Notes: generated by a model from the letters alone, not told the origin. A stretch of 64,000 nucleotides of DNA from an uncultured Chloroflexia bacterium (GCA_963727315.1 CAVSFE010000002.1:471723-535722), one strand, 5' to 3'. Positions 5,935 to 13,867 are shown, counted from the first letter of the stretch. Numbers and translations are program-made.

Positions 5935-6002
5935 CCCACTTATACCGCCAATATAAGTTACATTAAAAGCGGTAAGGAAGCAAGAGAATTTTGTCACTAT
6001 TT

Positions 6003-6300
6003 GACCTCACCCCCTACCCCCTCTCCAAACCTTAGATTAATTTAATAGTTTTATATTTTGTTTGGAGAGGGGGATAGCAATTGAGAGGGGCTGGCGCCCC
6101 TCTCGCTGACGCACTCCGTTTAGCGGAACGAAAAAACCTCTCAATCTCCCTTTACGAAAGGGAGAAGCTATATACGTACCCCATTTTCCCTCACCTATGG
6201 ATTCAAGCTTTCGCTAAAATGACAAAACAAGCGAGGTGTTTAAGAGGGGTCACGACCCCTCTTTCTTTTTCTTCCCCCTCTCCGTCGACGGAGAGGGGGA
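6003..6300. repeat. cluster of nested REP/MITE-like hairpins (CCCCTCTCC / GGAGAGGGG family)
   Basis: Inverted repeats: 6017-6030/6060-6073, 6083-6104, 6145-6165, 6242-6263 (followed by a T-run) and 6275-6300. The ACCTCACCCCCT leader at 6003-6014 recurs at 26709 and 38444. Confidence 0.8.
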
Positions 6301-6353
6301 TTAAGGGGGTGAGGTTGAGTCTCAATTCAACACTCGAACGGCATATTACCAGA

Positions 6354-6383
6354 TTGACTTTCCGGGGCGGAAATGGCTAGAAT
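6354..6383 (+). promoter_or_regulatory. candidate sigma70-type promoter for CetZ-like gene 1
   Basis: TTGACT (6354-6359), 18-nt spacer, TAGAAT (6378-6383). GGAGAGG RBS lies just before ATG 6409. Confidence 0.45.
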
Positions 6384-6408
6384 TAAGAAACAACCGGAGA
6401 GGTAAACA

Positions 6409-7584
6409 ATGAAGCTAGTCGTGGTGGGTTTCGGGCAATGCGGCGGCAGGATTGCCGACGAGTTCGCCCGTCTCAATAAAAGGGCGCGCGGCCTGCGCGG
6501 GCTCAACATCATCGCCGGTTCTTACGCGGTCAATACCGACCTCGCCGACCTCAGCGGGCTGCACACCATAAAGTCCAATTTCAGTCAGCGCATCGTCATC
6601 GGCAAGAAAAAGACCGGCGGCCACGGCGTGGGCAAAATCAACGAGCTCGGCGCGGAGATAGCCCGCGAAGACGCCGACATGGTCATCGAGACCATCCGGA
6701 ACACCGAAGACTTCGCCGAAACGGACGCCTTCCTGCTGGTCGCCAGCGCCGGCGGCGGCACCGGCTCCGGGGCGATACCGGTCATGACGCAGCAAATAAA
6801 AGAACGCTACGTCGATAAACCGGTCTATAACCTGATAGTCCTGCCCTTCGAGCACGAGGTCGTCACCGAAGACAGGACCGTCTATAACGTGGCCACCTGC
6901 CTGAAGTCCAGCTACCTCGTAGCCGACGCCATCTTCCTCGTCGATAACCAGCGCTACGTCATGAAAGACTCGTCGCTCACGCACAACCTCGCCAAGATAA
7001 ACACGACCATCGTGCAGCCGTTTTTCAACCTGCTCTGCGCCGGCGAAGAAAAAAAGGCGCAGTACATCGGCGCCAAGATACTCGACGCCGGCGACATCAT
7101 CCAGACGCTGGTGGGCTGGACGACCCTCGGCTACGGGCGGTCAGAGACCTCGATTTTCAAATCGTTCTGGCCGGTGTCGCGCAACTTCCGGGACAAAGCC
7201 CACGAAACGCAAAAGGGCATCCACGCGCTCGACGAGGCCATCAGCGGGCTTTCGATAAAGTGCAATCCGCTGGACTCGAAGCGGGCGCTGTACCTCGTAT
7301 CCGCCCCGGCCGAAGAAATCAACGTCGACCTGATAAAAGAGCTGGGAACATATATCAAGAACATGGCGCCGGAAGCCATCATCAGGAGCGGCGACTATCC
7401 CCGGGAGAAAGGCAACCTGGACGTCACCATCATACTCTCGGAGATGAGCGACGTGGAAAAGGTGAGGAGCTATTTCACCAAGGCCATCAACCTCATCGCG
7501 GAGCTCAAGAAGCGGCAGGAAGGCCTGGTAAGCACGCAGCGGGGCATCGATATCACGATTAAAGATATCCCATCGCTGCTGTAA
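6409..7584 (+). CDS. tubulin/FtsZ-superfamily GTPase, CetZ-like (copy 1)
   Basis: 391 aa. Motifs: GFGQCGGRIADEF, AVNTDLADL, GHGVGKINELGAEIA, tubulin signature GGGTGSG (nt 6751-6771) and T7-like FLVDNQRY. C-terminal tail is KDIPSLL. Confidence 0.8.
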   Translation: MKLVVVGFGQCGGRIADEFARLNKRARGLRGLNIIAGSYAVNTDLADLSGLHTIKSNFSQRIVIGKKKTGGHGVGKINELGAEIAREDADMVIETIRNTEDFAETDAFLLVASAGGGTGSGAIPVMTQQIKERYVDKPVYNLIVLPFEHEVVTEDRTVYNVATCLKSSYLVADAIFLVDNQRYVMKDSSLTHNLAKINTTIVQPFFNLLCAGEEKKAQYIGAKILDAGDIIQTLVGWTTLGYGRSETSIFKSFWPVSRNFRDKAHETQKGIHALDEAISGLSIKCNPLDSKRALYLVSAPAEEINVDLIKELGTYIKNMAPEAIIRSGDYPREKGNLDVTIILSEMSDVEKVRSYFTKAINLIAELKKRQEGLVSTQRGIDITIKDIPSLL

Positions 7585-7640
7585 GACAATCTCAAGTTAG
7601 CGCATTTTCCACCTTAGTGTAAAAAACTATCCTAAAAAAA

Positions 7641-7718
7641 GTCATTCCCGACTAGATTGGGAATCCAGCGCCTTTATTCCCGGCCCGGTCACTGGATTCC
7701 CGCTTTCGCGGGAATGAC
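7641..7718. repeat. double-hairpin REP-like element bounded by GTCATTCCCG...CGGGAATGAC
   Basis: Second copy at 28291-28364. The shared core is TGGATTCCCGCTTTCGCGGGAATGAC. Confidence 0.8.
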
Positions 7719-7748
7719 ATATTGATAATCTATATTTTTACGAAGTAC

Positions 7749-8237
7749 CTATCTGGCAATCTTGGAATAAATCTGCCAGGCCTGCTCGATGGTCTCGTCG
7801 CGGACTTTCCAGGCCTTCTCGACATGCTCGTCACGGACGCGGGTGGCCTCGGCGATAGCGGCGTCGCAGGCGCCGGTGGCCGCTTCGACGGCGACGCGGT
7901 AGGCTTCCTCGGCTTTAGCGATGATGCCCTCGCGGGTCGTGGCGGCCCTGGCCATGGCCTGCTCGCGGTCCTTTAAAGCCTGCGCCACGGTGGCCTCGTA
8001 AGACCGGTGCGACTGCGCTTCCGCCCGTTTATAGGCCTTAGCGACCTGCATCTCGTTCTCGTGGTAAGCCTTGGCGACCTGACGCTCGGCGTCCATATAG
8101 GCGGCATAAGCCCTCTCGGCCTGGCTCATGACCTCATCAAGGGCGCTCTTGGGTCGTTCCCCGGCGGCCGCCTCGGCCCCCTCGGCAGGGACTTCTACTT
8201 CTATCGGTTTTTTAGGTCTGTCTTTCTGGCTAGGCAC
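7749..8237 (-). CDS. hypothetical alpha-helical protein with 11-residue (hendecad) repeats
   Basis: 162 aa. GTG start is preceded by AAGGAGGTG. Repeats include QVAKAYHENEM/QVAKAYKRAEA/QSHRSYEATVA. No family recognised. Confidence 0.65.
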   Translation of the reverse strand: MPSQKDRPKKPIEVEVPAEGAEAAAGERPKSALDEVMSQAERAYAAYMDAERQVAKAYHENEMQVAKAYKRAEAQSHRSYEATVAQALKDREQAMARAATTREGIIAKAEEAYRVAVEAATGACDAAIAEATRVRDEHVEKAWKVRDETIEQAWQIYSKIAR

Positions 8238-8295
8238 CAGACACCTCCTTCAGCTTATCTCAGGTTATTTATTCGAACGTAACGACACAGTGCCA

Positions 8296-8324
8296 AGTAT
8301 ATGGTGCGGTGGGTAAAAAGTCAA
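8296..8324 (-). promoter_or_regulatory. candidate sigma70-type promoter for the 162-aa gene
   Basis: On the minus strand: TTGACT (8319-8324), 17-nt spacer, TATACT (8296-8301). Confidence 0.45.
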
Positions 8325-8350
8325 GCAAATTTCTCTCAGTTTTATGAGGG

Positions 8351-10621
8351 TTAATCCCCATTTTCTTCGGTATCTTCGGCGTCCGCCCCCCTCCTGGCCT
8401 GCTGGTTCCTCTTGGCCTCGTACATCCGGGCCAGAGACTCCAGGCGGGACTCCATCTTACCTTTAGACTCTTTATCAGCTTTTTTATCGGTCTGGCCGGC
8501 CTTTTCCATGGCCTGTTTCATATTCTCGAGGGCGGCTTCAGTGGACTGAAAAGGTCCCGGCTCTTTTTCTTCCGCCTCGTCCCGGGGCCCTTCAGCGCCG
8601 GCAGGTTTTTCGACTTCGGTTATCTCTTCGGACTCTTCATCTTCGCCGGCCAGCGCGCCCTGGTGCAGCGTGGCCTGATAGGCCTTGAGCGATGCCTCGG
8701 CGGTGTCGCGGGCGACCTGGCCGGTGGCCTCGGCGCGGCTGATGGCCTCCCTGAAGGCGGTGATAGAAACGCCGGCCGCCTCCCGGGCCACCCTGGCCGA
8801 GGCTTCGGTCGCCTCCTTGACCGCCTTTACCGTTCTCTCCGCCGATTCCCTGGCGGCTTTAATCAGACTGCCGGTTACCTCCCGGGCGGCCTTCACCGCG
8901 GCCTCGGCGGCTTCCTTGGTCTCGCGGCTCACCTGCTCCGCCCGGGCGATAGCGGCCCGGATTTCCTTCTCCGAAGCCGCGGCGATCTCCATGGCGCTGG
9001 CCTCGGCGATATTGATAGCCTCTTTAACGGTCTTCAGCGATGCCTCCGCCGTCTCCCTGGCCGAAAGGTTCAACTCCTCGGCTTTAGCCACCGCCTCCTC
9101 GGACTGTTTTACGGTCGCCGCAATAGCCTCCCGGGCGGCTTTCGCCGATGCCTCGGCGGTCTTTTTAGCCGCGGCGGCAATCTTTTCCATCCGGGAGACG
9201 GTCTCCCGGAACTCGGCGGACGACGCCTCGACCATCGCCCTGGTCTCCTGGCCGATGGCCTCGGCCCTGGCGATAGCTTCCTTCGATTGCTCGGTCGACT
9301 GCCGCGAGGCCTCCTGAGCGGCCTGAGCGGCATTGGCGGCGGCCTCCTCAGTGGCCTGAGCGGCCGCGGTCACGGCTTCCTGGGTCGCCTTGGCGGACGC
9401 CTCGGCCGACTTGCGGGCGGCCTGGGCGGACGCCTGGGCGACCGCGGCGGCCTCCTTACCCTCTTCCTCCGCCCGGGCGATAGTGGCCTGAATATCGCTA
9501 GCGGTGGCCTCGGCAAGGTCACGGGTCTCCCGGCTGATCTGCTCGGCGCGGGCGACCGCCTCGCGGAACTCATCGGCGGCCAGCGCCGCGCCGGATTTAG
9601 CTTCCTTACCGATGGTCTCCGCCTGGGCCATGGCCTCGCGGGAGGCCTTGACCGACGCCGCCGAGGCTTCCCTGGCCATTTTTACGGCGGCTTCCGTTAT
9701 CGCCTTCGTCTCCTCGACGATATCCTCGGCCCGGCGCATCGTTTCCTGGGCAGCTTTTTGCAGGGTATCGGTGAACAGCCTGGCCTCACGCTGGCTGGCT
9801 TCAATCTTGTTCAACGTCTCCTGGGACGACCTCTGGGCGGCATCGGCGACCTCGCGGGCGACCTTGCTGATGGTCTCCGAGCGGGTAGCCGCTTCCTCCG
9901 CCGCCTTGGCCGAGAGGTCGGCCGCCTCGCGGGTCGATTTGCTCGCCCGCTCCGCCCGGACGACGGTTTCCTTGGCGGCTTTATTGGCGGCATCGGCGGC
10001 CTCCTTGGCTTCACGAGCCAGCCGGTCCGCCCGGAGGGCCGCATCCCGGGTAGCCTTAATGGATTCTTCGGCGGCTTCCCTGGCGGTCTTGACGGTCGCC
10101 TCGGCCAGGCTGACCGCCTCCTCCGACGCCTCGCGGGCGGAATCCGACGTCTTTTTCGCCTCGCGGCTGAGCTCGTCGATGCGGCCCAGCCCTTCCTGGG
10201 ACAACATCAGCGCCGACTCCGCGGCGTGCATCGCCTCGGAGGTAGACTTTTCGGCGCGGGCGATGGCTTCCTCGAAGACCTTAGTCATCGACTCCGTGGT
10301 CTCTTTGGGCCGGCGGGCGACTTCCTCCGCCCGGCTGATGGCTTCGCGGGCGGCCTGAATGGCGGCCTCGGCGGACTCCCTGGCCTCGCGGCTGATCTGC
10401 TCGGCGCGGGTGACGGCATCCTGGGCGGCCTTAGCGGCGGCCTCGGCGGCCTCCTTGGCCTCCCGGCCTATCTGCTCCGCCCGGAGGGCCGCTTCCACAG
10501 CGGTCCTGGTCGATATCCCGGCGGCCTGCCGAGCCGCCCGGCTCAAGGCCTCCGCCCTGGCGACCGCCTTCTCAAAGTCGCTGGTATTCTTATCAACGCC
10601 CTGGCTGGTGTCAGGAGACAT
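8351..10621 (-). CDS. hypothetical 756-aa Ala/Glu/Arg/Lys-rich repeat protein (predicted long helical/coiled-coil rod with acidic C-terminal tail)
   Basis: ATG is preceded by GGAGGA. Repeat domain runs about aa 22-654 (nt 8660-10558) in a 25-residue register anchored on RAE. The + strand ORFs here are Gly/Leu/Arg-rich shadows. Confidence 0.75.
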   Translation of the reverse strand: MSPDTSQGVDKNTSDFEKAVARAEALSRAARQAAGISTRTAVEAALRAEQIGREAKEAAEAAAKAAQDAVTRAEQISREARESAEAAIQAAREAISRAEEVARRPKETTESMTKVFEEAIARAEKSTSEAMHAAESALMLSQEGLGRIDELSREAKKTSDSAREASEEAVSLAEATVKTAREAAEESIKATRDAALRADRLAREAKEAADAANKAAKETVVRAERASKSTREAADLSAKAAEEAATRSETISKVAREVADAAQRSSQETLNKIEASQREARLFTDTLQKAAQETMRRAEDIVEETKAITEAAVKMAREASAASVKASREAMAQAETIGKEAKSGAALAADEFREAVARAEQISRETRDLAEATASDIQATIARAEEEGKEAAAVAQASAQAARKSAEASAKATQEAVTAAAQATEEAAANAAQAAQEASRQSTEQSKEAIARAEAIGQETRAMVEASSAEFRETVSRMEKIAAAAKKTAEASAKAAREAIAATVKQSEEAVAKAEELNLSARETAEASLKTVKEAINIAEASAMEIAAASEKEIRAAIARAEQVSRETKEAAEAAVKAAREVTGSLIKAARESAERTVKAVKEATEASARVAREAAGVSITAFREAISRAEATGQVARDTAEASLKAYQATLHQGALAGEDEESEEITEVEKPAGAEGPRDEAEEKEPGPFQSTEAALENMKQAMEKAGQTDKKADKESKGKMESRLESLARMYEAKRNQQARRGADAEDTEENGD

Positions 10622-10653
10622 TAATCATCCTCCCCGATAAATGACGCCCCCCT

Positions 10654-10682
10654 ATTATATTATTCAATCCCCAGTTTTTCAA
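10654..10682 (-). promoter_or_regulatory. candidate sigma70-type promoter for the 756-aa gene
   Basis: On the minus strand: TTGAAA (10677-10682), 17-nt spacer, TATAAT (10654-10659). A 7-5-7 inverted repeat GGATTTT/AAAATCC lies at 10693-10711, just upstream. Confidence 0.5.
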
Positions 10683-10776
10683 CAAAGCGGCGGGATTTTC
10701 CTGAAAAATCCGCTATCTCCCAACGTGACGCATTTGACAGTACCAAAATATATTACATAAGTCACGGAACTAAAGA

Positions 10777-10805
10777 TTGACATTGCAAGCTAATTATGTT
10801 AAAAA
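10777..10805 (+). promoter_or_regulatory. possible promoter for CetZ-like gene 2
   Basis: TTGACA (10777-10782), 17-nt spacer, TAAAAA (10800-10805). The -10 element is weak. Confidence 0.3.
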
Positions 10806-10846
10806 TAGCTTAAGGTCATCAGGATTTTTTATCATCGAGGTGCAAG

Positions 10847-12021
10847 ATGAAATTAGTAGTTGTCGGTCTGGGTCAATGCGGCGGTAGAATCGCCGACGAG
10901 TTCGCCCGACTCAACTCGAGAGCCCACAGCAGGCGCGGCATGAACATCGTCACCGGCTGCTTCGCGGTCAATACGGACGCCGCCGACCTGAGCGGGCTAT
11001 CCGCCATATCCAACGACCACCGCCACCGCATCCTCATCGGGAGCCGCAAGACCGGCGGTCACGGCGTCGGCAAAATCAACGAGCTCGGCGCCGAAATCGC
11101 CAAGGAAGACGCGGACAAAATCGTCGACGCCATCAGGGCGACGAAGCGGTTCTTCGAGACGGACGCCTTCCTGCTCATCGCCGGCTCGGCGGGCGGTACC
11201 GGCTCCGGCGCCATCCCCATCGTCACGCAGCACCTGAAAGAGCGCTACATCGATAAGCCGATATGGAACCTCATCGTCCTCCCCTTCGAACACGAAGAGA
11301 CCACGGAAGAAAGGACCACCTTCAACGTCGCCACCTGCCTCAAGTCCTGCTACTCCATCGCCGACGCCGTCTTCCTCGTCGATAACCAGCGGTACGTCAG
11401 GAAAGACTCCTCGCTCCAGGCCAACCTCGCCAAGATAAACTCCATGATTTCCGAGCCGTTCTACAACCTGCTCTGCGCGGGTGAAGAAAAGAAGTCCAGG
11501 TACATCGGCGCCAAGCTGCTCGACGCCGGGGACATCATCCAGACAGTGGTCGGCTGGACAGTCATCGGCTACGGCAAGACGCAGGCGCCCCTGTTCAAAA
11601 TGCCCCTCGAACTGAGGAAAGATTTCCGCAAGAAGGGCCAAGAAATCCAGAAGGGCATCCAGGCGATGGACGAGGCCATCAGCGAGCTATCGCTCAAGTG
11701 CAATCCCGCCGATTCCCGCAGGGCATTATACCTGGTCTCCGGCCCGGCCAAGGAAATGAACATGGACATGGTCAAGGAAATCGGGGACTACATGCGGGAC
11801 ATCGCGCCCGAGGCCATTATCCGCAACGGCGACTACCCGCGAGAGAGGGGGTCGTGGACGTGACGGTACTACTCTCCGAGCTCAGCGACGTAGAGAAAGT
11901 GCGCGACTACTACCTGAAATCGACCGACCTCATCCCGGAGTTCAAGAAGCGGCAGGAAGAGACGGAGGACAAGCTCCGGGAGCTGGACGAGGTTGCAAAA
12001 GACATTCCGTCGCTGCTGTAG
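10847..12021 (+). pseudogene. tubulin/FtsZ-superfamily GTPase, CetZ-like (copy 2); reading frame broken as assembled at a G-run
   Basis: Same motifs as copy 1 (GLGQCGGRIADEF, AGGTGSG, FLVDNQRY). Frame 10847-11863 joins frame 11698-12021 if the G5 run at 11847-11851 is G6. Tail again ends KDIPSLL. Confidence 0.8.
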
Positions 12022-12042
12022 AAAACAAAAATCAGGGCGTTT

Positions 12043-12072
12043 AAGAGGGGCTGAAAAGCCCCTCTTTCTTTT
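12043..12072 (+). terminator. rho-independent terminator after CetZ-like gene 2
   Basis: AAGAGGGGCT-GAAA-AGCCCCTCTT stem-loop followed by TCTTTT. Confidence 0.6.
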
Positions 12073-12201
12073 AAAGGGAGAGTAGTTAGCAATTAGCGGG
12101 GGGAAAAAGGGGTTAAATATTATTTCCTATCAACAAATACCTGAAAAATATCCCGAAATTTCCTTGGGCGAAAACCTGTTTTAGGGTATAATAGAGACGT
12201 C

Positions 12202-13867
12202 ATGCCTTCACAGGTTTTTTATAGAAAGTGGCGCCCTCAATCGCTCGTCGAGTTCGTCGGGCAGGAGCACGTCACCCACACCCTGCTCAACGCCCTTGCG
12301 ACCGAGCGCGTCTCGCACGCCTACCTTTTCTGCGGGCCGCGGGGGACGGGCAAGACGACCACCGCCCGCAACCTCGCCAAAGCCATCAACTGCCTCACCA
12401 ACGGCAAGGGCGAGCCCTGCAATAAGTGCTCGATGTGCGTGGCCATCACCGAAGGGCGGGCTTTAGATGTCATCGAGGTGGACGCCGCCAGCAACCGCGG
12501 CATCGATGAAATCAGAAATCTAAGAGAAAAGGTCAACTACGCCCCCAACGAAGCGCGCCGCAAGGTCTACATCATCGACGAGGTCCACATGCTCACCAAG
12601 GAAGCGTCGAACGCCCTGCTCAAGACGCTGGAGGAGCCCCCGCCGCACGTCGTCTTCATCCTGTGCCACCACCGAACCCCACAAGCTCCTGCCGACCATC
12701 CTGTCGCGCTGCCAGCGCTTCGATTTCCACCGCTACTCCCTGGCCAACATGGTGACAGTGCTGTCCCGCGTCTGCGAAGGGGAAGGCATTCACATCGAGG
12801 CGGAGGGGCTAAAGCTCATCGCCCGGGCGGCCACCGGCAGCCTGCGCGACGCCCTCAACCTGTTACAGCAAGCCAACACGTACTACGGCAGCGAAATCAA
12901 CCTCGCCCAGGTGCAGGCCCTCCTCGGCATTACCGGCGACCAGCGCGCCAAAGAAGTGGTCAGGCACATCGTCAAACGGGACGCCAGCGCCGGCATCACC
13001 ACCATCAACAACGTCAACAGCGACGGGCTCGACCTGCGCCAGTTCCACCGCGAGCTGGTGGAATACCTGCGCCGGCTGCTCATCGTCAAGACCGGCTCCA
13101 GCGACTCCATCGAGCTGACCGCCGAGGACATCAAAGAACTCAAAGAACTGGCCGCCAAAACGCCGCTGCCGGTTATTATCAAAGCCATCAAGCGTTTCGG
13201 ACAGCTCGAACTCAGCCTGGACAACTATTCCACCCTGCCCCTGGAGCTGGCCCTGGTAGACTGCACGATAACCGAGCCGGAAGACAAGGCACCGTCCGCC
13301 CGCCAGGCCGAAACCGAACCGACCGGCCGACAGGCGACGCCCAGATATAACCCGCCGCCAGCCCGGCCCAAAACCACGCCTCAACCCGCAGAAAAAAGCA
13401 TCCGCGAACCGCCGGCCGACAAGCCAGCGGCGGCCGAGAAACCCATTACCACAGCCGCCGAAAAACCAGTCCCGGTAACCGCGGAGAAACCGGCACCTCC
13501 GACGGCGGCTAAAACCGAGGCCGGTCCATCGGCGGTAGTCGGCACCATCGAGCAACTGCAGCAGCAATGGAGCAAGATTATTAACGATGCGCCCGACGGC
13601 ATGAGCAAGACCCCGGCGGCCGCCCTGCTCCGCTCCGCCCGACCTAAAGAAATAACGGACAACGTCCTGATAGTATCGTTTAGATATCCGATGCACAAGG
13701 ACAATATGGAGAAGCTGGAAAACCAGAAAATGGCCGAAAAAATCGTCAGCAAATTCATGGGCCGCGCCTGCCGGGTGCGCTGCGTCTACGAGCACGAGAA
13801 CAACCACCTGGTACAGGAAGCTATTAATAATTACGGAGCGCAACGGATGAACACGGAGGAGACATGA
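12202..13867 (+). pseudogene. dnaX: DNA polymerase III subunit gamma/tau; frameshifted as assembled near 12664
   Basis: Walker A GPRGTGKTT and IIDEVHML are in the first frame. ATTEPHKLLPTILSRCQRFDF follows in the next frame after an extra base at about 12664. The second frame runs to 13867. Confidence 0.85.

Follow-up and report, generated by a model that had tools for sequence, protein, structure and literature searches.

What kind of protein is encoded between two genes for tubulin homologues in a bacterium of the Chloroflexota, and what could it do there? This question is raised by a stretch of 64,000 nucleotides (nt) from an uncultured Chloroflexia bacterium (GCA_963727315.1 CAVSFE010000002.1:471723-535722), hereafter the window, in which an open reading frame (ORF) at 8351..10621 on the minus strand encodes a protein of 756 amino acids (aa) with repeats spanning residues 19-655. 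This rod protein, as it is called in the following, probably serves a bacterial tubulin-like cytoskeleton as a structural partner that has not been described so far. Tubulin homologues of the CetZ type are known as archaeal cell-shape proteins. The cluster described here, with two CetZ-like paralogues, a rod with a predicted length of approximately 95 nm and a putative docking peptide, and a small hairpin protein, is conserved in some 60 genomes; their class is abundant in the environment and includes the organohalide respirer Dehalococcoides. The cluster provides concrete candidates for a bacterial tubulin-type cytoskeleton.

The 25-residue lattice and its gene

The rod is laid out on a lattice of 11- and 14-residue blocks, which combine to units of 25, 36, 47 and 69 residues. 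Anchors of the RAE or RAE-like type stand at residues 22, 47 and so forth up to 297, followed by 333, 358, 383, 452, 477, 513, 538, 560 and 629; with the sequence written in rows of 25, the anchor column is thus constant from residue 22 to 297 and later displaced by 11 or its multiples. The longer units of 36, 47 and 69 residues correspond to 25 plus one, two and four 11-mers, respectively, and the irregular unit of 22 residues to two 11-mers. A first-pass annotation made from the DNA sequence had counted the unit lengths by hand (eleven times 25, then 36, and further on to a last unit of 26), and this count was matched exactly by the anchor analysis.

The self-identity of the rod peaks at lags of 11 (0.25), 14 (0.18), 25 (0.28), 36 (0.26), 50 (0.28), 61 and 75 residues over a background of 0.14. 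In comparison to 2000 shuffled sequences, lag 25 (0.28 vs. 0.14) reached z = 10.6 and lag 11 z = 8.4, with lag 7 at 0.159 vs. 0.142 (z = 1.3). Among the 53 family members, i.e., the window copy and 52 full-length orthologues recovered from Dehalococcoidia genomes, the anchor spacings obtained with an iterated position matrix were 11 (775 times), 25 (677 times) and 14 (243 times), other values being rare, and 25 was the strongest lag in 51 of the 53 proteins. Since these three spacings dominate, the true building blocks have 11 and 14 residues and 25 is their sum, which bears out the period of 25 (11+14) with extensions by 11s proposed in the first-pass annotation. The composition had likewise been read correctly, as A/E/R/K/S/T/Q/V make up 85% of the rod (aa 19-655), which contains 1 Pro and 12 Gly.

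A hydrophobic period of 3.57 residues (= 25/7) in the N-terminal half of the rod and 3.61 in the C-terminal half was revealed by Fourier analysis (peak 3.56-3.61), the median across the orthologues being 3.585. Neither a dominant 7-residue period nor a hydrophobic period of 3.50, as expected for a canonical heptad coiled coil, was found by autocorrelation and Fourier analysis of the rod, and the non-heptad character claimed earlier therefore holds. Spacings of 11, 14 and 25, a seam period between 3.5 and 3.67 and a helix predicted by AlphaFold2 (AF2) over residues 6-657 are those of a rod mixing heptads and hendecads. The apolar seam proceeds in steps of 3-4-3-4-3-4-4 via unit positions 2, 5, 9, 12, 16, 19 and 23. 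For structural biology, the family is a natural, deeply sampled case in which helices follow a period of 25/7 (7+7+11) and supercoiling is close to zero.

The two halves of the rod differ in their evolution. The N-terminal approximately 290 residues align without a single gap across 32 orthologues (gap-free to residue 287); P105, F116, M131 and S141 are invariant in these sequences and G144 is nearly so. Moreover, each repeat unit retains its own peculiarities across the orthologues, position by position, which means that the repeats are constrained one by one and not homogenised. The C-terminal half, in which 25-mers are mixed with runs of 11-mers, differs in length between orthologues, with alignment gaps clustering at residues 376-451, 534 and 616-652. 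In front of the rod lies a short cap, of which E17 and K18, together with V20 just behind it, are at least 90% conserved among the orthologues.

The rod is followed by the acidic, Pro/Gly-containing tail of approximately 100 aa (aa 656-756) which had been noticed at first pass. No secondary structure was predicted by AF2 for residues 658-691, the predicted local distance difference test (pLDDT) score falling below 50 for 652-689, and this linker varies in length and sequence among orthologues. Behind it, all 53 sequences carry the motif K-x-K-[MI]-E-A-R-L-[EDN]-[SF]-L-A-[RK]-M-Y-E-x-K-K, invariably C-terminal to the variable linker, with the core RLxxLAxMYE and the invariant residues R726, L727, L730, M733, Y734 and E735; it was also found in divergent family members. 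The AF2 helix over residues 717-750 has the highest local pLDDT of the model (about 70). Behind the motif, the orthologues continue for 21 residues and carry a net charge of -2 there (medians). As the motif helix is amphipathic with a narrow stripe and flanking acidic residues, it would be suited to docking to a protein rather than to membrane targeting, and we infer from these sequence features that it is a docking helix. The gene is divided as follows (minus strand throughout; basis in brackets):

8351..10621, minus: rod-protein gene, 756 aa, stop codon included (ORF, codon-position bias, 52 orthologues)
10568..10621, minus: N-terminal cap, aa 1-18 (MSPD...DFEKAV), conserved and non-repetitive (52 orthologue N-termini align)
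9623..10567, minus: N-terminal half of the rod, aa 19-333, strict 25-residue register, ~12.5 units (register print)
8657..9622, minus: C-terminal half of the rod, aa 334-655, spacings 36, 11, 47 and 11x4+25 (anchors, indels)
8465..8656, minus: variable acidic Pro/Gly linker, aa 656-719, partly predicted disordered (AF2, orthologue variation)
8408..8464, minus: C-terminal helix motif, aa 720-738, KGKMESRLESLARMYEAKR (tail alignment of 53)
8354..8407, minus: acidic C-terminal end, aa 739-756 (translation)
10628..10682, minus: promoter-like site at 10682..10654 and ribosome-binding site at 10635..10628 (scan, direct reading)

Repetitive DNA of biased composition may feature long ORFs as a by-product, and the true product could even be read from the plus strand (653-aa ORF at 8663..10624): the codon-aligned antisense frame is fully open, another frame runs for 288 codons, and fragments only were retrieved from protein collections. 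Such a non-coding or opposite-strand origin of the rod ORF has practically no probability, however, in view of its evolution. Mismatches to the five orthologues compared are dominated by codon position 3 (e.g., 127/87/286 for positions 1, 2 and 3), and the changes in the sense frame, 200 synonymous to 184 non-synonymous, give the best ratio of all frames. The antisense reading was rejected, as the same changes amount to 59 synonymous and 325 non-synonymous in its frame. Indels relative to the orthologues include lengths of 33, 66, 72 and 75 nt and are mostly multiples of 3, often 33, 66 or 75 nt, which equal whole 11- or 25-residue units. Read in the sense frame, the orthologues also preserve both the N-terminus and the C-terminal motif. 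In addition, a promoter-like TTGAAA-17-TATAAT site (11/12 matches; 5 sites in the region vs. 0.9 expected by the promoter scan) and the ribosome-binding site GGGGAGGA, identified by direct reading 5' of the ATG at 10621, lie on the minus strand, and the gene callers of the Joint Genome Institute (JGI) placed an orthologue of 766 aa on the strand of the rod gene (L079 8024-10324). A search of Rfam gave no RNA family within 6000-12500. The rod ORF is a real minus-strand gene under purifying selection, and the refutation by non-coding DNA or expression from the opposite strand, envisaged at first pass, is thereby excluded. The gene was found split at L080 4041-6267 into genes of 586 and 88 aa, the latter holding the C-terminal motif, which reflects either an assembly frameshift or a natural split.

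The autocorrelation of the DNA has its maximum at 75 nt (0.47), followed by 150, 108 and 33 nt. The repeat copies are 60-80% identical to each other and Tandem Repeats Finder reported a single short 33-nt array (9387-9453), which together indicate that the repeats are old. The first-pass annotation had assumed that this 75-bp periodicity keeps all six frames open and generates large shadow ORFs; the periodicity and the shadow ORFs stand, but not the six frames and not the cause. Stop-free are the sense and the codon-aligned antisense frame only, the other three frames beside the one with 288 codons containing 18-35 stops. The rod gene uses no TTA, CTA or TCA codon and features 80% G+C at third positions, and it is this codon usage, not the periodicity, which keeps the antisense frame open. 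Antisense ORFs of 653 aa (8663-10624), 210 aa (8685-9317) and 284 aa (9504-10358) were observed on the plus strand. These shadow ORFs are artefacts of codon bias and could mislead gene callers.

Predicted helix, apolar stripe and charge ladder

From the single sequence, AF2 predicted residues 6-657 as helical with four short breaks, one of them at P105, at a mean pLDDT of 57.6 and a predicted template modelling score (pTM) of 0.27; several conserved Gly sites coincide with predicted breaks. The very long helix postulated earlier is hence retained at low confidence, but not as an uninterrupted one, given the invariant Pro105 and the conserved Gly at the breaks. A Foldseek search with this low-confidence model gave no significant match and returned generic long hairpins only. 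Plotted on a 25/7 wheel, 12 apolar positions, occupied mainly by Ala/Ser/Thr, cover approximately 160 degrees, and bulky residues (I/L/V/M/F/Y/W) concentrate at unit positions 24 (85%), 5 (56%), 17 (40%) and 20 (33%). As the period of 3.57-3.61 is near the natural pitch of an alpha-helix, the stripe runs almost straight and would form an interface nearly without supercoil. On the face opposite to it, Arg/Lys alternate with Glu; the rod contains 99 opposite-charge pairs of the i to i+4 type (35 +/- 5 in shuffled sequences), and i to i+5 pairs are depleted (6 vs. 35). The net charge amounts to -14 for the rod and -13 for the tail (aa 656-756).

A coiled coil had been named as one possible form of this helix. 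The non-heptad helical rod stands; that helices are packed together, instead of forming a single or a surface-bound helix, is suggested by less direct points. First of these is the combination of conservation unit by unit with a strictly periodic apolar stripe, which argues for an interface rather than a featureless spacer. Further guidance is provided by metagenomic histidine kinases of the REC-PAS-HisKA-HATPase type, P0001 (L081 4756-7374) and P0003, in which approximately 350 aa of near-perfect 25-mers with an 18-residue variant constitute the linker between PAS and HisKA. Their unit RAEEEARLAREEAEAVKTASQEAIA compares to RAEQISREAKEAAEAAxKAAQEAVx in the rod, and BLASTP aligned both proteins with E = 2e-9 at about 30-33% identity, the best alignments including a long stretch of approximately 7 consecutive units in register without gaps. 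The array of these kinases differs from the rod in being internal, in its variant of 18 = 25-7 residues and in the lack of the N-terminal cap, the C-terminal motif and a CetZ neighbour. Judged by sequence comparison, the similarity of the repeats may reflect either homology or convergence. The segment between sensor and HisKA is normally a parallel dimeric coiled coil in histidine kinases, and it is chiefly this position of the repeats which makes a two-stranded coiled coil preferable to a single helix. At about 50 nm, the kinase linker is unusually long for signalling, and the neighbouring gene encodes a REC-ParA/MinD-type ATPase.

These points bear on the proposal that the rod is a stable single alpha-helix of the ER/K type without any helix-helix interface, i.e., a long semi-rigid spacer or ruler holding the C-terminal peptide about 95 nm away from an N-terminal target. 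The extreme richness in Ala, Glu, Arg and Lys, the dense i to i+4 pairs typical of such helices (99 vs. 35), together with the depletion of i to i+5 pairs, the very long isolated helices in the AF2 model and the few bulky hydrophobic residues in the stripe all speak for it. Nevertheless, it is quite doubtful, because a periodic seam (Fourier 3.56; position 24 at 85%, position 5 at 56%) departs from the ER/K pattern and would be purposeless if exposed to solvent, because unit-specific conservation with the invariant F116 and M131 points to contacts, and because the same type of repeat occupies the dimeric linker position in histidine kinases.

Alternatively, the rod could be a giant amphipathic helix, unfolded or loosely helical in solution, which lies flat on the cytoplasmic membrane or another interface via its Ala/Ser/Thr face and coats it in the manner of perilipin-4 (Plin4), late embryogenesis abundant (LEA) proteins or synuclein. 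Repeats of 11 amphipathic residues yield a straight amphipathic face, to which the 11-residue sub-period and the period of 3.57-3.61 of the rod would fit. To our knowledge, Dehalococcoides have no peptidoglycan wall, and membrane-shaping proteins would be plausible in such wall-less cells. The wide, weakly hydrophobic face of small residues, moreover, resembles that of Plin4 as portrayed in two reports (PMC5889406; PMC8064757). Against such a coat, charges of -14 in the rod and -13 in the tail, with acidic residues beside the apolar face, are unfavourable on anionic bacterial membranes; no LEA, apolipoprotein or perilipin model matched at E up to 10; the i to i+4 ladder predicts a helix which is already stable in solution; and the conserved synteny with CetZ would be left unexplained. 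A membrane coat is accordingly hardly probable. The lipid-binding 11-mer helices evoked at first pass are likewise a poor model, since the protein is acidic, holds few bulky hydrophobic residues and is encoded among cytoskeletal genes. The preferred form thus remains a rod of packed helices.

The CetZ-like tubulins and the conserved gene cluster

A search for homologues beside tubulin-like genes, recommended in the first-pass annotation, was the most informative lead and revealed the CetZ cluster in about 60 loci. In the window, the neighbours of the rod gene are:

7749..8237, minus: gene of the small protein (162 aa, 11-residue period), 3' of the rod gene and co-oriented with it (ORF)
7634..7718, minus: long hairpin followed by a T-run, 3' of the small gene (direct reading; unlisted by the consensus scan)
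6409..7584, plus: CetZ-like tubulin A, 391 aa, convergent with the rod unit (Pfam Tubulin, CetZ_C)
10847..12021, plus: CetZ-like tubulin B, divergent from the rod gene, frameshifted (Pfam Tubulin, CetZ_C)

The hairpin with its T-run is likely the terminator of a two-gene unit of rod and small protein, in which the small gene has a promoter-like site of its own (8324..8296) and the Shine-Dalgarno sequence AAGGAGGTG. CetZ-like A was assigned to Pfam Tubulin (E 9.5e-33) and CetZ_C (E 3.1e-18), both over the cut-off, with scores for A and B of 114.5 and 113.7 bits in PF00091 and of 66.3 and 46.1 bits in PF21011 CetZ_C (cut-off 21.6). The best solved relatives are Haloferax CetZ1 (4b46, E 6.8e-44) and CetZ2 (4b45), whereas FtsZ reached only 1.7e-12, and the NCBIfam ftsZ model gave 60 bits for the CetZ-like proteins vs. 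a cut-off of 295. By sequence, the flanking tubulin homologues are closer to CetZ than to FtsZ. CetZ-like B is 69% identical to A and, compared to three other loci (L001, L006, L079), carries an extra G in a GGGGG run at about 11846-11850, so that its ORF (10847..11863) ends after 338 aa and the sequence VVDVTV...KDIPSLL, with which the orthologue ends (56 aa), follows in another frame up to 12021; this is either a homopolymer sequencing error or a real pseudogene or slippery site. The CetZ-like proteins end in ...(K)DIPSLL or ...GSIPSLLD, as observed at 7540-7584, at 11995-12018 and in a relative of 55-61% identity (L082 7553-8692). In FtsZ, the C-terminal peptide (DIPxFL) recruits partner proteins, and by analogy the CetZ-like peptide could be a handle for the rod or the small protein.

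Scanning species-representative genomes for CetZ-like A gave 78 loci, nearly all in metagenome-assembled genomes of Dehalococcoidales/Dehalococcoidia. About 60 of them show the order CetZ-A (plus), small protein (minus), rod (minus), CetZ-B (plus) and holB (plus), with small proteins of 160-190 aa and an 11-residue period and rods of 660-915 aa and a 25-residue period. Lineages of lower GC content without the small gene retain a repeat protein of 525-654 aa between two CetZ genes. A divergent member of 487 aa lies convergent to a CetZ-like gene of 55-61% identity in an unrelated neighbourhood, on a contig with 46% GC. Where a single CetZ-like gene of the B type is situated between gap and holB (L076 8710-11173; L078 336-2594), as in some Dehalococcoidia, neither rod nor small protein is present at that locus. 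CetZ-A, the small protein and the rod hence look like one module that was inserted into, or deleted from, a conserved gap-cetZ-holB backbone. This pattern of cluster, divergent member and loci with a single CetZ is the main evidence for a functional link between rod and CetZ. The CetZ-like protein itself is widespread, with more than 6000 clusters at 90% identity (6055 matches).

The small protein shares the repetitive style of its neighbour. Its self-identity at lag 11 amounts to 0.19-0.29 in 43 orthologues, and a helical core with a mean column identity of 77% features regularly spaced Tyr/Trp (AYxxAExxVAK...AWQIYSKIAR). Two helices, 29-74 and 77-161, were predicted by AF2 as an apparent hairpin (pLDDT 83). 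Vipp1, PspA and Asgard ESCRT-IIIB were the best Foldseek matches at E 0.2-0.3 and template modelling scores of about 0.46-0.5, which are non-significant; no Pfam match to PspA_IM30 or Snf7 was obtained, and its profile found none of these proteins in the PDB. An identity as ESCRT-III was dropped for this reason, and a generic helical hairpin is the safer reading of the model.

In the reading favoured here, to which we give an even chance, the rod protein is a cytoplasmic, barely supercoiled coiled-coil rod of about 95 nm which scaffolds, bundles or tethers CetZ-like filaments and docks by its C-terminal peptide. Residues 19-655 as a helix would extend over approximately 95 nm, built from blocks of 11 residues (3 turns) and 14 residues (4 turns), which mostly pair into units of 25 (7 turns). 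The stripe of Ala/Ser/Thr, edged by Ile/Val/Leu at positions 5, 17 and 24, would be the helix-helix interface and the i to i+4 charge ladder on the opposite face would stabilise the helix, two strands running probably in parallel with minimal supercoil and possibly joining into higher bundles. The flexible acidic linker may present the invariant amphipathic helix as a docking peptide. The rod would act with both CetZ-like tubulins and, in most lineages, also with the co-transcribed small hairpin protein. Its task in Dehalococcoidia might be the scaffolding, spacing, bundling or tethering of CetZ-like filaments. For the oligomeric state of the rod, the target of its motif and its cellular role, we infer these answers from the pattern of sequence, structure prediction and gene order.

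Several observations weigh against this picture. The stripe consists mostly of Ala/Ser/Thr, its 2-3 bulky residues in every 25 make a weak core by the standard of classical dimers, and a ladder of i to i+4 pairs typifies stable single alpha-helices. Classical parallel dimers employ opposite charges at i to i+5 between strands, and such pairs are depleted in the rod. The AF2 model is of low confidence and found no significant counterpart in the fold search, the resemblance to the kinase repeats could be a convergence of composition and period, and gene neighbourhood is indirect evidence for a physical contact between rod and CetZ. Moreover, the subunit repeat of tubulin/FtsZ-type protofilaments is approximately 4.0-4.4 nm, so that a rise of about 3.7 nm per 25 residues does not obviously satisfy one repeat per subunit. 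A ruler with one repeat per tubulin subunit was not adopted because of this mismatch.

A bolder proposal is that the rod binds along a polymer lattice like tropomyosin or a ruler-type microtubule-associated protein, its individually conserved 25-mers touching successive sites of a CetZ-A/CetZ-B heteropolymer and the C-terminal peptide, with or without the hairpin protein, anchoring it in a shape-determining cytoskeleton. This arrangement appears unlikely; if true, it would amount to a previously unrecognised shape-determining cytoskeleton and to the first partner defined for any CetZ. In a proteomics study on Dehalococcoides mccartyi, the levels of the tubulin-type GTPase btf_0551 and the nearby hypothetical protein btf_0548 followed cell morphology in parallel, both being abundant only in pure culture, with cells of normal disc shape (PMC8163811); btf_0548 may or may not be an orthologue of the proteins described here.

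Comparison with known systems

Searches for relatives of the rod protein yielded nothing meaningful in Pfam (E up to 10), NCBIfam and PHROGs. A word-indexed homology search with the full protein returned three PAS kinases only, an exhaustive HMMER search mostly N- and C-terminal fragments of the own family and the repeat-bearing kinases, and a profile of the C-terminal tail fragments of 42-132 aa only. A collection of 15 billion proteins was found to contain neither a full-length rod nor a full-length small protein, although genes of 766 aa and 126 aa had been called by JGI, and it includes the CetZ neighbours. As the rod is absent in spite of a gene call, the scarcity of matches is a database gap and no measure of rarity, which also removes the missing full-length matches as an argument for a non-coding origin. 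Low-complexity and repeat proteins may be filtered from the collection, which would hide such families from homology searches. In the literature searched, no partner protein is described for any CetZ, the rod family is undescribed and no 25-residue coiled repeat was found. The CetZ-like proteins of Dehalococcoidia are mentioned once, in passing, in a work which also reports that unknown coiled-coil genes are common beside archaeal CetZ- and tubulin-like genes (PMC9871819). Residues 757-987 of P0020, an unrelated ankyrin-repeat protein of 1211 aa, consist of approximately nine near-identical 25-mers, EKLNRNQKEALERQAKEYEDRIHRM, with a lag-25 identity of 0.74, so that at least one further protein, probably of a eukaryote, has a helical period of 25 residues.

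No natural solved structure was matched by the family profile in the PDB, and its only matches there are the de novo designed straight and right-handed helical bundles 4tql and 4uos (E 4.9e-9 and 4.5e-10). Designs of this type use non-heptad periodicities of 18 and 11 residues, and they share Ala-rich cores and Glu/Lys/Arg surfaces with the rod but are artificial, short, single-chain bundles. The match is one of composition and idealised helices, not of ancestry.

Plin4, group 3 LEA proteins and synuclein resemble the rod in their repeated amphipathic helices of hundreds of residues, in which a sub-period of 11 recurs and small residues make up the apolar face. Their repeats, however, have 11 or 33 residues, are poorly charged or flanked by Lys and are unfolded without lipid, whereas the rod is acidic, carries the i to i+4 ladder and belongs to a cytoskeletal gene cluster. 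LEA, apolipoprotein, perilipin and synuclein models in Pfam gave no match to the rod at E up to 10, and with the net charge of -14 the resemblance by these tests lies in the periodicity only. A giant helix without bulky hydrophobic residues is attributed to Plin4 in two reports (PMC5889406; PMC8064757).

The actinobacterial Scy/FilP proteins, to which the first-pass annotation had compared the rod in principle, are likewise bacterial alpha-helical rods of great length whose end domains are short, whose periodicity mixes heptads and hendecads regularly, and whose role, played or presumed, is cytoskeletal or scaffolding. Walshaw, Gillespie and Kelemen (2010, J Struct Biol 170:202, cited in PMC3718342) dealt with these Streptomyces coiled-coil proteins, whose repeat unit reportedly has 51 residues. 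In the autocorrelation of the rod, lag 51 is at background (0.119) without a peak of the Scy/FilP type, and neither sequence nor family-model similarity to Scy/FilP was detected with Pfam, NCBIfam and HMMER; kinship therefore reduces to a mere resemblance. Scy/FilP belong to Actinomycetota, and have DivIVA and ParA as partners, whereas the rod protein occurs in Chloroflexota beside CetZ-like tubulins. The comparison still raises the idea that the rod assembles by itself into a filament or meshwork of the intermediate filament (IF) type, like Scy/FilP or crescentin, the CetZ-like genes serving the same process, such as cell shape, without direct binding. Such an assembly would agree with a long non-heptad rod whose non-helical ends are short, with the conservation of units position by position and with hydrophobic clusters every 25 residues (positions 17-24 and 2-5), which could drive a staggered lateral association. 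We consider it somewhat improbable though credible, as family-model and profile searches gave no sequence relationship to known filament families, as the tight co-occurrence with CetZ holds in two genomic contexts and as a flexible linker ending in a docking-type peptide fits a tether or adaptor better than the tail of a filament.

The FtsZ-associated proteins EzrA and ZapB are all-helical partners of a tubulin-superfamily polymer which scaffold, bundle or tether its filaments. EzrA is composed of spectrin-like triple-helix repeats of about 100 residues with a transmembrane anchor and ZapB is a short heptad coiled coil. The rod resembles them in its predicted, almost entirely helical build and is encoded beside the gene of a tubulin-superfamily polymer, but both lack the 25-residue period, and homology to the rod was not detected with Pfam and the PDB profile. 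Tropomyosin and other coiled coils which bind laterally to filaments share with it a continuous rod with a long-range period superimposed on the helical one, stretches of Ala-rich core alternating with clusters of larger hydrophobic residues, individually conserved periods and, for the rod gene, a link to a polymer-forming nucleoside triphosphatase. Tropomyosin is heptad-based with a period of approximately 39 residues fitted to actin, whereas the rise of about 3.7 nm per 25 residues in the rod has no obvious fit to subunits of 4.0-4.4 nm. The rod protein founds a family not described so far, which belongs to the known class of long non-heptad helical rods, and its hallmarks are the 25/7 period and the conserved association with bacterial CetZ-like tubulins.

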